A stretch of 64,000 nt of DNA from Octopus vulgaris (Eukaryota): positions 19,530,001 through 19,594,000 of the forward strand of contig OX597824.1 of NCBI GenBank assembly GCA_951406725.2, given 5' to 3'. The notes under the pieces were generated by a model that saw only the letters and a program-made list of their open reading frames with translations, ran no database searches and had not been told where the DNA came from. Made by a program: the position numbers and the translations under genes. Shown piece by piece: positions 4,889-49,085 of this stretch (positions are counted from its first letter, which is position 1; each line of letters begins with the position of its first letter).

Positions 4889-4923
4889 GTTTCTGACGAA
4901 GAGCTCCGCTCGAAACGTTAAAT
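4889..4923 (+). ncRNA. Minimal hammerhead ribozyme, family P1 (canonical CUGACGA)
   Basis: gttt-CTGACGA-a-gagc tcc gctc-GAAA-cg-TT-aaa, inside a dispersed element at about 4850-5015. Confidence 0.65.
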
Positions 4924-13033: not shown

Positions 13034-13452
13034 GGCGGCGAGCTGGCAGAAACGTTAGCACGCCGGGTGAAATGCTAAGCGGTATTTCGTCGGCCGTTAC
13101 GTTGTGAGTTCAAATTTCGCTGAGGTCGACTTTGTCTTTCATCCTTTCGGGGTCGATAAATTAAGAACCAGTTACGCACTGGGGTCGATATAATCGACTT
13201 AATTCGTTTGTCTGTCCTTGTTTGTCACCTTTATGTTTAGCCCCTTGTGGGTAATAAAGAAATAGGTATTTCGTCTGCCGCTACGTTCTGAGTTCAAATT
13301 CCGCCGAGGTCGACTTTGTCTTTCATCCTTTCGAGGTCGATTAAATAAGTACCAGTCACGCACTGAGGTCGATGTAATCGACTTAATCCGCTTGTCTGTC
13401 CTCGTTTGTCCTCTCTGTGTTTTTAGCCCCTTGTGGGTGTAGTAAAGAAATA
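13034..13452 (+). mobile_element. SINE family A dimer with a 10-bp TSD
   Basis: ggttaattcg at 13025 and 13453; internal junction aaagaaata|ggtatttcgtct. Confidence 0.85.
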
Positions 13453-13717
13453 GGTTAATTCGACTAAAATCCTTCAAGACGGTGCAGTGCCGCAGGTTGA
13501 CCGTAGTCCAATGGTTGAAACAATTAAAAGAGAAAAAAACAAAACAGAAAAGATCAAAAGATCTTGGTTTGCGTTCGTTGAAAAAAATCCTCTAAAACTT
13601 TCCCCTCAATGTCATCGCCATGCAACTCGGTTTCAAATCAATATATTATGATTGAAGTAAAGAGTATTATGTAATAAGACACACGAAGGCCAAAGCCGGC
13701 TTTTATTATTATTATTA

Positions 13718-35076: not shown

Positions 35077-35279
35077 ATAGTAAAATCGTAATAGAAATAT
35101 AGTAAAATCGCCAACGATACACACGCGATATATATATATGTATATATAATTAATTAATAAGGGTGATAGAATTAGATACTAATTTAATAGTAACGCTATT
35201 CAACACCGAGTGGCTCAGTGCACAGAGAAACCTGGATTATTATAATATTTTATAATATATTATAATATTTTATACATAA

Positions 35280-35479
35280 ATACATATAAGAGAGTGGTCA
35301 CTATGTGGCTCACTCTAGCACTAGAAATAGATTCAATAGGTTTCAACCACAAAATAAATGTTTCCCATGAAAGTCAGCACGATTGAATCGTGCTGACTTT
35401 CATGGGAAACATTTATTTTGTGGTTGAAACCTATTGAATCTATTTCTAGTGCTAGAGTGAGCCACATAGTGACCACTCT

Positions 35480-35490
<11 letters not shown>
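35280..35490. repeat. Perfect palindrome, 105-bp arms with a 1-nt spacer at 35385
   Basis: ..aagtcagcacgatt g aatcgtgctgactt.. pairs out to atacatataagagag / ctctcttatatgtat. Confidence 0.92.
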
Positions 35491-35559
<69 letters not shown>

Positions 35560-35592: not shown

Positions 35593-36079
35593 TCAATTGA
35601 AGAATTAGACTTTTCTGTTATATTTTCTGTTATGAGCTGGAATTTCTATGTTTCGAATTTCATCAATATTGCAGATGAGGGCTTTGTCCCTCTTTACACA
35701 CCCTAAAAAAATTGTAATCGTGCCACATGTATCCCATACTACTGATTTTTATTCGCATATTCCATAATTCCAGTGTTATTGAACCTGTTAAAAAGATTTT
35801 GCTCCTAAAAAATGAAGGTCATGGAGCTCTAAAATGTGAGAGTTAAGGCCCTTGTTGTGGGTGGGCATCTTAATGTCAACCAGAGAAGTTAAATTGTTAA
35901 AAATCTTTTTAACTTGGGTCTTATATCTATGGTTTGAATTTCTTTGAAATAGGAAATATATGTTCACTGGGTTTGTAAAAGAGAGCAAAGCTACAGGAAA
36001 CCAAAAGACGAATGATCACAATAAGCAGTCAGTTACCCTACCCTAGTCGTTACTTGAAGTACCGGTTCAAGAACTATGT

Positions 36080-36167
<88 letters not shown>

Positions 36168-36435
36168 CATATATGTATATAAATATATGTATACACAAAC
36201 ATACACACACACACACGCACACACACACACACACACACGCACACAAAGATAAATTGATAGATACAAGTGTGGGGGCAAACAAAAATATGAGACACTGCAT
36301 AGTGCTTTTTTATTTTTTGATAAGCCTGGTACTTATTCTATCAGTTTCTTCTTGTGAAACCAGTAAGTTATGGGGATGTAAATAAACGAACCAGTTGTGA
36401 AGACGAACGAGAACCATGGTTCGAAATTTCCTCAA

Positions 36436-36481
36436 GACACCTGATGAAGGCTGGAGGGTATATCAGCCGAAACGTTGTGTT
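36436..36481 (+). ncRNA. Minimal type I hammerhead ribozyme, canonical core
   Basis: gacac-CTGATGA-a-ggctg gagggtatat cagcc-GAAA-cg-TT-gtgtt; 5-bp stems I and II. Confidence 0.75.
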
Positions 36482-36536
36482 AACAACAAACAAGATGAGG
36501 TCAAATATCCATCAAATGTAAATAATGTAAATAATT

Positions 36537-36795
36537 ATAAAGAGTTGTCTGGCTGGCCAAAACATATTTTTAATCGTTGATGAAAATGAGGTCGATGACA
36601 AACAAAATTGTTATGTACTTATAGGTTCGGTTAAGAATCCTCTAAAAACGTTCTTAATGGAATGTTTGCCACTGCTGCAATCATCGCTCCGATTATCGAT
36701 GATTTGCTAAGGAATATGGTTATTCCAAGAGAAAGCTGTCTCCTACAATTGTCTGATACTGCTGGGTATAAGGTAGCTGCTGGAGAAGGTAACCG
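36537..36795 (+). pseudogene. hAT-like (DUF659/CGGBP1-related) transposase relic
   Basis: IKSCLAGQNIFLIVDE..YVLIG..FLMEC, frameshift, then IDDLLRNMVIPRESCLLQLSDTAGYKVAAG, resembling the VDE and LSDAA.YM..AG motifs. Confidence 0.55.
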
Positions 36796-36862
36796 AAGGT
36801 CTTCCATGTAACCTGCCTCTCCCACCTACTGTACAACTGTGCTATAAAAATGAAGAATTTCT

Positions 36863-37440
36863 TATTTCTTTACTGCTCACAAGTGGCTAAACATAGAGGG
36901 GACAAACAGGGACAGACAAACGGATTAAGTCGATTACATCGACCCCAGTGCGTAACTGGTACTTAATTTATCGACCCCGAAAGGATGAAAGGCAAAGTCG
37001 ACCTCGACGGAATTTGAACTCAGAACGTAACGGCAGACGAAATACTTATTTCTTTAGTACCCACAAGGGGCTAAACACAGAGAGGACAAACAAGGACAGA
37101 CAAACGGGTTAAGTTGATTATATTGACCCCAGTGCGTAGCTGGTACTCAATTTATTAAGGCGGTGAGCTGGCAGAAACGTTAGCGCGCCGGGCGAAATGC
37201 GTAGCCGTATTTCGTCTGCCGTTACGTTGTGAGTTCAAATTCCGCCGAGGTCGACTTTGCCTTTCATCCTTTCGGGGTCGATTAAATAAGTACCAGTTAC
37301 ATCCTGGGATCGGTGTAATCGACTTAATCCGTGTGTCTATCCTTGTTTGTCCCCTCTATGTTTAGCCCCTTGTGGGTAGTAAAGAAATAGGTACTTAATT
37401 TATCGACCCCGAAAGATGAAAGGCAAATTCGACCTTGGCT
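36863..37440. mobile_element. Nested SINE A: plus-strand copy (37157-37389) inserted into a minus-strand concatemer
   Basis: TSD ggtactYaatttat flanks the inner copy. Confidence 0.8.
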
Positions 37441-37510
37441 TCAAATGACTGAAAAAACTAAAAGAATAAAAGAAATACAATTACTTATAATTAAATTTTA
37501 ACCTCTTTTT

Positions 37511-37573
<63 letters not shown>

Positions 37574-37855
37574 CAACAATTGAGGGTAAAATTAATTAAT
37601 TATTAATCAATTTCACCAAGTGTTCAGTATGCAAAGGGACCATTTAAGGCGAATTCAAATTATTACATTATATAAAAGGGCTTAGTAAAATAAATTACTT
37701 TGCCGCATACTGAACTCATTAGAAATAGCAGCTAAAAAACTTTTTTAAAGCTATTTCTAATACTTAAAGAAAATCTCACTCATATAGTGTTTGCTTAATT
37801 CAACTCACAAAAGTTTAGGGGTAAGGACATCAAAAAATCAAATGCAAAGGTTATT

Positions 37856-37907
37856 TGAGAACGTACGTTTCAAGATTAGTCAAAACGACACTTCTATCAT
37901 CAGCTCA
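37856..37907 (-). ncRNA. Hammerhead ribozyme (inverted copy)
   Basis: Reverse complement of 38389-38440. Confidence 0.72.
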
Positions 37908-38388
37908 GAAACTCCTTGGTTTGGATTTGGAAACACTGAAAGTAAGAACATACCCTTTCGGCTTCTCATCGCTTTCGAAGATCTGCTCCTAACTAACAGT
38001 GCCAACAAACTCAAATAAGCAAGCGAAGAATTTCTGTTCTCCCCTTTCCACCAGCGTGGGTTAAAATCATTAATAATTTGAATTCGCCTTAAATGGTCCC
38101 TTTGCATACTGAACACTTGGTGAAATTGATTAATAATTAATTAATTTTACCCTCAATTGTCGAAATTATAATTAATCTCCCTCTAATTAATGCTTCGGAT
38201 TTTACCGAAATAAGCATAGTGTTTGATGATTTTAACCCACGCTGGTGGAAAGGGGAGAACAGAAATTCTTCGCTTGCTTATTTGAGTTTGTTGGCACTGT
38301 TAGTTAGGAGCAGATCTTCGAAAGCGATGAGAAGCCGAAAGGGTATGTTCTTACTTTCAGTGTTTCCAAATCCAAACCAAGGAGTTTC

Positions 38389-38440
38389 TGAGCTGATGAT
38401 AGAAGTGTCGTTTTGACTAATCTTGAAACGTACGTTCTCA
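38389..38440 (+). ncRNA. Type I hammerhead ribozyme, unit 1
   Basis: tgag-CTGATGA-taga..gtc gtttt gac..tctt-GAAA-cgtacg-TT-ctca; stem I tgag/ctca; palindromic ACGUACGU stem III; stem II imperfect. Confidence 0.72.
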
Positions 38441-38948
38441 AATAACCTTTGCATTTGATTTTTTGATGTCCTTACCCCTAAACTTTTGTGAGTTGAATTA
38501 AGCAAACACTATATGAGTGAGATTTTCTTTAAGTATTAGAAATAGCTTTAAAAAAGTTTTTTAGCTGCTATTTCTAATGAGTTCAGTATGCGGCAAAGTA
38601 ATTTATTTTACTAAGCCCTTTTATATAATGTAATAATTTGAATTCGCCTTAAATGGTCCCTTTGCATACTGAACACTTGGTGAAATTGATTAATAATTAA
38701 TTAATTTTACCCTCAATTGTTGAAATTATAATTAATCTCCCTCTAATTAATGCTTCGGATTTTACCGAAATAAGCATAGTGTTTGATGATTTTAACCCAC
38801 GCTGGTGGAAAGGGGAGAACAGAAATTCTTCGCTTGCTTATTTGAGTTTGTTGGCACTGTTAGTTAGGAGCAGATCTTCGAAAGCGATGAGAAGCCGAAA
38901 GGGTATGTTCTTACTTTCAGTGTTTCCAAATCCAAACCAAGGAGTTTC

Positions 38949-39000
38949 TGAGCTGATGATAGAAGTGTCGTTTTGACTAATCTTGAAACGTACGTTCTCA
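38949..39000 (+). ncRNA. Type I hammerhead ribozyme, unit 2
   Basis: Identical to 38389-38440, 560 bp downstream. Confidence 0.72.
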
Positions 39001-39177
39001 AATAACCTTTGCATTTGATTTTTTGATGTCCTTACCCCTAAACTTTTGTGAGTTGAATTAAGCAAACACTATATGAGTGAGATTTTCTTTAAGTATTAGA
39101 AATACCTTTAAAAAAGTTTTTTAGCTGCTATTTCTAATGAGTTCAGTATGCGGCAAAGTAATTTATTTTACTAAGCC

Positions 39178-39246
<69 letters not shown>

Positions 39247-39311
39247 GCTATATATATAATGTACATATGTAGGTATATATCTGTGTTCGTATGTGTGTAT
39301 GTATGTGTGTC

Positions 39312-39350
<39 letters not shown>

Positions 39351-39567
39351 ACCTAGGACGATGACGTCAGCACATTTCATGTTCCTCACACAGCAGGGTG
39401 CAGCATTTCGTCTGTCTTTACTTTCTGAGTTCAAATTCCACCGAGGTCGACTTTGCTTTTATCCTTTCGGTGTCGATAAATTAAGTACCAGTTGCGTGCT
39501 GGGGTCAAGCTAATCGAATGGCTCCCCCTTCCAAAAATTTCAAGCCTTGTGCCTAGAGCAGAAATGG

Positions 39568-39639
39568 TACATACATACATACATACATACATACATACAT
39601 ACATACATACATACATACATACATACATACATACATACA

Positions 39640-39672
<33 letters not shown>

Positions 39673-39693
39673 GCATACATACATACATACATT

Positions 39694-39724
<31 letters not shown>

Positions 39725-39859
39725 GCATACATACAAAATACATTCATACATACATACATACATACATACATAATACGTACATACATACATGCATACATAC
39801 ATACATATATGCATACATACATAATACATTCATACATACATACATACATACATAATACG

Positions 39860-39892
<33 letters not shown>

Positions 39893-40066
39893 GCATACAT
39901 ACATAATACATACATACATACATACATACATACATAATACATACATACATACATACATACATACATAAAACATACATACATACATACATACATACATTCA
40001 TACATACATACATATATGCATACATACAAAATACATACATACATACATGCATACATACATACATAA

Positions 40067-40097
<31 letters not shown>

Positions 40098-40125
40098 CAT
40101 ACATACATACATGCATACATACATA
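39568..40125. repeat. (TACA)n array with recurring variant motifs
   Basis: Direct reading. Confidence 0.9.
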
Positions 40126-40459
40126 CTCTATTATGAAGCTAGTCTCTTAATTAGCCAAGTGAACCGGTTACTGGTCAGTGGTTTTCGACTAAACTGCATT
40201 GATCTGATAGCTATCACTGATATACGTCTTGTACTAAATTGATCTTGTATCCATTTCAGACACCACGCTTGATTAATTGGTCGACTGTGATCTGAGACTA
40301 AACCATATTGATCTGGTACCTATATCGGTCAATTATCTGAACTGATTGACAGATTGTACTTTGGGGTCAAGTCATGTTAGTGACAGTTCGCTACAATGAT
40401 TGGTCAATGTTGTCCTGAGTGTAACAATCAACATTGACGTTCTACCTATTACTAACATT

Positions 40460-40876
40460 AAGGCGGCGAGCTGGTAGAATCGTTAGCATTTCGGGCGAAA
40501 TGCGTAGCCGTATTTCGTCTGCCGTTACATTCTGAGTTCAAATTCCGCCGAGGTCGACTTTGCCTTTCATCCTTTCGGGGTCGATTAAATAAGTACCAGT
40601 TACGCACTGGGGTCGATATAATCGATTTAATCCGTTTGTCTGTGCTTGTTTGTCCTCTCTGTGTTTAGCCCCTTGTGGGTAGTAAAGAAATAGGTATTTT
40701 GTCTGCCTTTACGTTCTGAGTTCAAATTCCGCCGAGGTCGACTTTGCCTTTCATCCTTTCGGGGTCAATAAATAAAGTACCAGTTTCGCACTGGGGTCGA
40801 TGTAATCGACTTAATCCCTTTGTCTGTCCTTGTTTGTCCCCTCTATGTTTAGCCCCTTGTGGGCAATAAAGAAATA
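40460..40876 (+). mobile_element. SINE family A dimer with a 13-bp TSD
   Basis: tattactaacatt at 40447 and 40877. Confidence 0.9.
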
Positions 40877-41059
40877 TATTACTAACATTGGGGTATGTTG
40901 ATTGATGACCTGTGTTTGATCTGGAATCGAACATTCCAATATTGTTATGATACTATTACTGAGAACTCGGTGAAATGATTGGTTGATTTTGTTGGGCCTA
41001 AAAACTGAAGAGATTCAACTGGTATCGATTCTAGTCCCTCCAACTATTTAAGTGAATTT

Positions 41060-48865: not shown

Positions 48866-48915
<50 letters not shown>

Positions 48916-49049
48916 CAATAAGGGTTTTGCAACAAGTTCCTTGACCACATACCGAAAATTTTAGAAATAGCACCCAAAGGACTACTATTTCCTTTTTCTA
49001 CCAAAATATGTCTCCACAGACAACAATATTTGTAACTCACCCATGGCAA

Positions 49050-49085
<36 letters not shown>

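Follow-up and report, generated by a model that had tools for sequence, protein, structure and literature searches.

The stretch of Octopus vulgaris DNA analysed here (contig OX597824.1, positions 19,530,001 to 19,594,000, i.e. 64,000 nt; hereafter the window) contains a short array of nearly identical repeats in both orientations, and this raises the question of what kind of element the array represents, by which enzyme it is copied and from which template. The whole insertion spans 37566 to about 39187 and is bordered on both sides by (TA)n tracts, of which the left one (37510–37569) is the target microsatellite and the right one extends over 39182–39332; TA-rich flanks were also found at most of the 78 loci described below. 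A minus-strand arm (37566–38070) is joined head to head, at the junction 38070/38071, with a plus-strand arm of two 560-bp units (38071–38630 and 38631–39187). The outer 3' end of the inverted arm, at 37566, is a "long" fixed end (unit position 294, with position 1 at 38437, the first base past the predicted ribozyme cut), and that of the plus-strand arm, at ~39187, is a "short" one (unit position ~191). Comparison at an offset of 560 revealed exactly two mismatches (38161 and 38545) between 38071–38627 and 38631–39187. The segment 38226–38730 is an exact reverse complement of 37566–38070, and extension of this match to 38073 costs one mismatch.

The longest stop-free frame at the locus comprises ~90 codons and there is no conserved ORF; the unit length varies among relatives (545–563 bp), so that no frame is conserved. 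The initial annotation, which had described two direct 560-bp units with about two differences, an inverted copy upstream, (TA)n at both flanks and no credible ORF, was therefore accurate in each of these respects. As the element carries no RT plus GIY-YIG ORF, it is not an autonomous Penelope-like element (PLE). It has no coding capacity, a low GC content (33%) and no LTR, and neither a PBS nor a PPT was noticed. The predicted cut-to-cut monomer (38437–38996, 560 nt) is strongly self-paired, with a circular minimum free energy (MFE) of -149 kcal/mol (z = -7.1 against 30 shuffles).

Several other repeats are present in the window. SINE-like repeats of 184 bp, presumably an octopus-type SINE, surround the element in both orientations (36852–37435, 39400–39526, 40457–40876, 13081–13455). 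A near-perfect palindrome with 114-nt arms (98%) adjoins (TA)n at 35271–35499 and is possibly another head-to-head insertion of PLE type. Additional hammerhead-like motifs at 4893 (+), 35072 (-), 36441 (+), 51762 (+) and 56913 (-) come probably from unrelated PLE-type repeats.

Each copy of the unit contains the motif TGAG-CTGATGA-stem II-GAAA-CGTACG-TT-CTCA, as had been indicated by the initial annotation. Two hammerhead ribozyme (HHR) copies lie on the plus strand (38389–38440 and 38949–39000, with C3 at 38393 and 38953) and one in the inverted arm (37856–37907, minus strand, C3 at 37903). The predicted cuts after 38436 and after 38996 are spaced by 560 nt, and that of the inverted arm falls between 37860 and 37859. 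The motif has the core CUGANGA/GAAA/UH and the three helices of a type I hammerhead: stem I is TGAG/CTCA, the core reads CUGAUGA and GAAA, a 2-bp stem III lies inside the palindrome ACGUACGU, stem II consists of U-U at its base followed by 3 bp, a 3x3 internal loop and 3 bp, and the predicted cleavage site is GUU. The G10.1-C11.1 pair is absent from the HHR copies, which show U-U, A-U, G-U or A-A at this position. An Rfam scan of 36000–41000 yielded no hammerhead at E<=1 among its 52 hits, only microsatellite-driven miRNA matches, and according to folding prediction the MFE structure of the monomer (-9.1 kcal/mol) differs from its active fold (-2.1 kcal/mol). The same features, i.e. a 2-bp helix III with a tetraloop and U-U at the base of helix II, are described for the axolotl ribozyme HHR_Amex2, which nevertheless cleaves, weakly as a monomer and efficiently as a dimer (PMC7229834). 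The likeness is one of features and not of compared sequences; HHR_Amex2 resides in a 350-bp unit and its activity has been demonstrated, whereas activity of the octopus ribozyme is predicted. In a recent preprint (bioRxiv 10.64898/2026.07.22.740005), cleavage in vitro is reported for one of nine predicted Xenopus retrozyme dimers.

The core proved invariant in 246 HHR copies from 76 loci, and variation was confined to N7 (U/A/C), H17 (U/A), loop II and wobble or compensatory positions. This invariance is partly circular for the 38 loci on contig C1, which were selected by a pattern that fixes the core; the remaining 40 loci were selected by full-unit similarity. As half of the loci were core-selected, the independent evidence for selection on the HHR comes from sister families. 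In two of these, B and C, the ribozyme occupies the same place and displays compensatory changes. Among 15 variants, hand-picked from 60 and drawn from three related families, 92.8% of the cells were paired compared with 21–41% in slid controls (a figure that is not a probability), and both sides had changed in 7 of 13 HHR pairs. Stem III is self-complementary in all three families, as ACGUACGU, ACGCGCGU and ACAG(G)CUGU; the energies of the corresponding duplexes are -9.8, -13.3 and -10.0 kcal/mol, respectively. Conservation of the core and stems among genomic copies, proposed by the initial annotation as a test of the ribozyme, was thus observed: the core does not vary, the stems covary and the palindrome is kept. 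Judged from the sequences, the hammerhead looks to be under selection. The retention of a palindromic stem III across families, together with the conservation and covariation, supports the earlier suggestion that the ribozyme is built to act as a dimer, two HHRs likely pairing via ACGUACGU.

To place the locus in its genomic context we scanned 2.8 Gb of sequence (227 contigs). The best 40 of 1,379 candidates gave 220 matches to the 560-bp unit on many chromosomes, and the full-length units among them were 96–100% identical. The pattern CTGANGA-N18-32-GAAACGTACGT had 2,260 matches, compared with two for a reversed-pattern control; its first 100 matches correspond to 38 loci, which by rough extrapolation gives ~860 loci in the genome. 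A 31-mer spanning the long end into the following unit was matched 1,224 times (control, 0). For closer analysis we used 78 loci: 40 were picked because they resemble the unit, and the other 38 are those that come first on contig C1. Every locus has its own junction, the loci are distributed over many chromosomes, and the unit is present in independent public sequencing runs, which shows that it is not an assembly artefact. The genome-wide search recommended by the initial annotation has therefore revealed a dispersed family, and the locus is a young copy of this protein-free 560-bp repeat.

These observations bear directly on the notion that the array is a DNA-level repeat (a Helitron-derived satellite or foldback element) or an assembly artefact, and that its hammerhead is a chance look-alike. 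Rolling-circle DNA transposition can yield tandem arrays, and the lack of an Rfam match is in line with a fortuitous motif. However, copies with individual junctions on many chromosomes, an insertion polarity that tracks the HHR strand, target duplications, structure-preserving variation of the HHR and the occurrence of the unit in independent runs largely refute this explanation, to which we give hardly any credence.

None of the public runs listed as carrying the unit is recorded as RNA; fourteen, taken to be RNA by guess only, contain 45–62% of the sampled words of the unit. Contigs of four presumed-RNA runs fill 27–28 of 29 bins and cannot show ends, strand, level or circles. A 560-nt step-back joint in these contigs is explained equally well by genomic tandems, and the single contig that begins at 38437 probably does so at a graph branch point.

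With the anatomy of the insertions the analysis goes beyond the initial annotation, in revealing two fixed internal ends distinct from the HHR cut, as well as membership of a larger superfamily. The outer 3' ends are fixed at unit position ~294 (long) or 191–203 (short), ~100 nt apart; both are TATA sites and neither is the HHR cut. The inner 5' ends occur at varied positions around the unit. Among 54 simple inversions, 47 combine a long with a short end, none has two long ends, one has two short ends and six are of other types; in the sole short-short case (L139) the long end is probably interrupted, as the tail is present but broken. Direct copies terminate at the long (14/20) or the short end (6/20), and the rest of the 78 loci comprise one complex and three gap-cut insertions. 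The TATAT at unit position 74 never serves as a 3' end at the 78 loci, which indicates that microhomology alone is not what selects the end sites. Overlaps at the head-to-head junctions are mostly 0–6 nt. The arms overlap in sequence and each can exceed one unit, insertion polarity follows the HHR strand, and a poly(A) tail is absent.

Target duplications were scored at 12 of 75 loci (control mean 3.2, maximum 9). Such duplications can be recognised only in interrupted TA tracts. Lengths of ~14 bp, with interruptions inside the duplicated stretch, were found at four loci (L035, L043, L146, L164) and, by eye, at L039, while the other 8 of the 12 scored loci and, likewise, the window's own locus are uninformative. 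At the level of the family, therefore, these are dispersed retroposed copies with target duplications.

LINEs too give 5' truncation, target duplications and head-to-head inversions, so the family might be regarded as a SINE-like element moved by a LINE endonuclease and RT, its inversions arising from L1-type twin priming. Under twin priming as in L1, one of the outer ends should be fixed and the other variable, and the arms should be adjacent without overlapping. In the octopus family both outer ends are fixed, the overlapping arms may each be longer than a unit and a poly(A) tail is absent. The failure to find a PLE partner in 109 PLE-sampled loci (Naiad not included) speaks for a LINE, whereas the combination of a type I HHR and a tail is, as far as the consulted parts of the sources go, specific for PLEs (PMC11167929, PMC8557442). 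We consider movement by a LINE very unlikely.

The features of the insertions (tandem and inverted copies, two fixed 3' ends delimiting a tail, a microsatellite target) are those of a PLE derivative. The anole PLE protein is described as nicking both strands of AT-rich DNA and is predicted to form a dimer; its RT starts at two internal sites, the interval between which becomes the genomic tail (PMC11167929). PLE insertions are reported to be partially tandem, to include a 5' copy in inverted orientation and to bear a 30–40-bp tail at one end, and Naiads to prefer (TA)n targets (PMC8557442, PMC3846280). Endonuclease-bearing PLEs (Poseidon PAc, PMC11167929; Neptune and Naiad, PMC8557442; Adineta Penelope, PMC3846280) thus share with the octopus family the partial tandems, the inverted 5'-truncated copy, the tail at one end, an AT-rich or (TA)n target, an HHR upstream of the priming sites and, when visible, target duplications. 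They differ in possessing an ORF and a tail of 30–40, compared with no ORF and ~98–103 nt here, and their tail is optional as described, whereas it is near-obligate in the octopus family (47/54). Naiads, in the part of PMC8557442 consulted, lack canonical HHRs, unlike this family. By analogy with these elements, the ends represent the "tail" signature that two start sites leave in PLEs, except that the tail is longer. In our opinion a PLE-type mobilisation of the 560-bp family is highly probable, and the link to PLEs drawn by the initial annotation, which had proposed a retrozyme, gains support from the family-wide conservation, the covariation and this insertion anatomy.

Two diverged matches to unit positions ~95–285, i.e. 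to one structured module alone, led to families C and B. The ~190-nt module, delimited at the locus as 38526–38730 by alignment with sister families and by the insertion ends, was aligned in nine sequences (the window's family and families B–G) and consists of two hairpins and a long-range stem, here at ~38535–38578, ~38679–38711 and 38584–38590/38665–38671, respectively. The short start site (~38627–38639) lies in the large loop of the module and the long one (~38730) follows the last hairpin; each has a CCCT-like motif ahead and TATA at its end. The module pairs are mostly just conserved, with double changes in 2 of 30. The module is a putative binding and priming site of the reverse transcriptase. 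A SECIS-like reading was rejected, as the loop is, by eye, far too long.

Among 109 loci (727 kb) that had been retrieved for different purposes, 6 contained the module, and a second copy occurs within the window at 48917–48991, from which we estimate, roughly, ten thousand copies or more. This second copy belongs to a 5'-truncated, short-ended superfamily fragment between TA tracts (48911–49056, minus strand). Family C (L220:400-1950, minus strand; L216-L239) forms tandem or inverted arrays of 561–562 bp, shares ~76% identity with the unit within the module, and has an HHR with a GUC/GUU site and a near-palindromic, 9-nt stem III. Family B (L199, L205, L212, L213) has a ~578-bp period (L212), a long stem II and the palindrome ACGCGCGU, and includes many short head-to-head copies that show two fixed ends. 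Three ~198-bp module-only copies with TA tracts between them were found at L206. A ~586-bp tandem (L182:7644-8793) is accompanied by inverted pieces at other places in the locus and by a nearby HHR-like motif, and may represent one more family of retrozyme type. Ahead of the short start site, families B, D, E and F carry AACCCT(AA) (alignment A1, columns ~101–115), where the window's family has AGCCCT; the former is similar to the telomeric repeat TTAGGG in its complementary form, and a link to telomerase-like priming would be speculative.

Potential sources of the enzyme exist in the Octopus vulgaris genome, in which we found intact PLEs with RT and GIY-YIG domains (several Neptune-like families) and an older PLE family with a C-terminal endonuclease. 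The search consisted of PF01541 and PF20815 scans and one protein search, with 150 of 6,136 GIY-YIG candidates scored; Naiad was not among the families sampled. In the 109 loci sampled in this way the module was not attached to any PLE ORF or pLTR, and module matches near PLE ORFs look like separate insertions into TA tracts. One young Neptune-like family (L170-L186) has many open 781-aa RT + GIY-YIG ORFs, preceded by ~1.3 kb of sequence that looks coding, pLTRs of ~500 bp that are 99–100% identical, and its own minimal HHR with a U3-A8 core swap. Another (L074:2377, L187) has an HHR with U-U at the base of stem II and lacks the module. Single inverted copies of two Neptune-like families have equal ends.

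The remaining question concerns the template. Opposite arms of one insertion differ by 0.38%, compared with 6.4% between loci, in the C1 set, and by 0.29% compared with 1.8% in the young set; at the window's locus, three private variants each occur in all three passes. Arrays reach at least 12 units, and all 11 units of L167 and 8 of the 9 of L149 are identical. Private variants are fixed in both arms in 23 cases (16 of 56 inverted loci) and unfixed in 67 (31 of 56), and three loci (L034, L041, L069) display variant patterns of period 2 or 3, which indicates change after insertion and later block duplication. Array length alone, therefore, does not prove a rolling circle. The variants that recur every 2–3 units at these loci and at L052 are incipient higher-order repeats. 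Alignments reading through the predicted cut site number 259, and none of 128 5' ends falls exactly on the cut (5 of 128 within 3 nt; in an unbiased set 2 of 61, with ~0.8 expected). The template must thus have been continuous at this site, as a religated circle or as uncut RNA, and a linear cleaved monomer as the main template was rejected.

Uncut RNA would be an uncut multimeric read-through transcript of the same PLE-dependent element, which the HHR cuts late, rarely or only together with protein; a circle would not be needed and long arrays would result mainly from unequal crossing-over after insertion. The periodic variant patterns and the weak HHR features (no Rfam match, active fold not the MFE) fit such a template, local tandem amplification is favoured in bioRxiv 10.64898/2026.07.22.740005, and for the anole PLE uncut RNA is described as the main template, HHR mutants inserting normally (PMC11167929). 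It leaves unexplained, however, why a covarying, dimer-type HHR has been kept in three ORF-less families, given the absence of a 5'-end pile-up at the cut; private variants fixed over 6–12 units and both arms require a single-unit bottleneck, and the identical units of L167 and L149 also count against it. We regard this template as rather unlikely, and a circle, given PLE-type mobilisation, as probable.

Since an ORF-less element retains a dimer-type HHR and its copies read through the cut, excision and circularisation followed by two-site priming is the simplest scheme. The element would then be a non-LTR retrozyme, likely copied in trans by a PLE RT/GIY-YIG enzyme, probably from circular RNA, and this reading as a whole seems to us reasonably likely. 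A read-through transcript would cross two same-strand HHRs, which, likely paired via ACGUACGU, would excise the 560-nt monomer, to be closed by a host ligase as in known retrozymes. The ~190-nt module would be recognised by a PLE protein, probably dimeric, which would nick both (TA)n strands ~14 bp apart, as suggested by the TA targets and some ~14-bp duplications observed. From these two nicks reverse transcription would be primed at internal positions ~100 nt apart, matching the two fixed ends, and each cDNA may exceed one round of the template, passing the cut site, as seen at the DNA level. Head-to-head joining of two 5'-truncated cDNAs, with microhomology slight or absent, would produce the observed layout (TA)n-long arm<- ->short arm-(TA)n, and a single successful priming would leave a direct copy. 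Some arrays may grow later by unequal exchange, as the periodic variants suggest.

A broader possibility, which we advance tentatively and hold to be somewhat less likely than not to be correct, is that a superfamily of ~550–580-nt circular ribozyme RNAs (at least three HHR families, perhaps 10^4 or more module copies) parasitises a PLE enzyme via the ~190-nt structure with two CCCT...TATA starts. A protein dimer would start on one circle at both sites simultaneously, in a double rolling-circle reverse transcription that uses one site per target strand.

Non-LTR retrozymes have been described as a class (PMC7229834; PMC4209133) and interpreted as non-autonomous PLE derivatives in bioRxiv 10.64898/2026.07.22.740005, whose available text covers neither molluscs nor the end signature and does not contain the words "tail" or "head-to-head". 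Like metazoan members of this class as far as described (PMC7229834), the octopus family has a non-coding tandem unit with one type I HHR motif, a GC content below 45%, a self-paired monomer and coexisting autonomous PLEs. Its 560 bp exceed the 170–400 nt given in PMC7229834 and lie within the 51–972 bp of the preprint. In the parts of these two sources consulted, retrozymes are not described as having two fixed ends, long-short pairing, head-to-head arms, (TA)n targeting or a shared module. Retrozyme circular RNA is known elsewhere, whereas the circle of the octopus family is predicted. Chlamys elements such as MRC1 are also ORF-less and PLE-dependent and form multicopy head-to-tail insertions; as presented in the consulted part of PMC8557442, they lack canonical HHRs and have 3' ends in common with known autonomous families, while no such partner was found here. 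The initial annotation had not recognised the 560-bp repeat as a described family, and our literature searches found no description of it either. The main text of an octopus repeat-annotation paper, as available, has no hits for hammerhead, ribozyme or retrozyme (PMC13282606); an unlabelled consensus may exist in its repeat library, in Repbase/Dfam or in preprint supplements. The class is thus already known, and the family was not found in print.

According to one review, no conserved motif of animal retrozymes indicates their partner (PMC7761336), and the arguments for their mobilisation by PLEs have until now been co-occurrence, shared HHRs and pLTR phylogeny. The ORF-less octopus family, a likely retrozyme, itself bears the PLE insertion signature, in hundreds of young copies. 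The findings bear on two questions, the origin of the tandem and inverted structures and tails of PLEs, and the use of circular RNA as a template for transposition. If the circular-superfamily reading is true, it would provide direct evidence, from a genome, on the movement of animal retrozymes, and would also explain PLE head-to-head repeats with a one-sided tail. The main value of the family is as a clean test system: a defined RNA module with two mapped start sites supplies the available in vitro assay for PLEs with a substrate that is both small and specific, by which the proposed route for animal retrozymes, circular RNA plus PLE enzyme, becomes testable.
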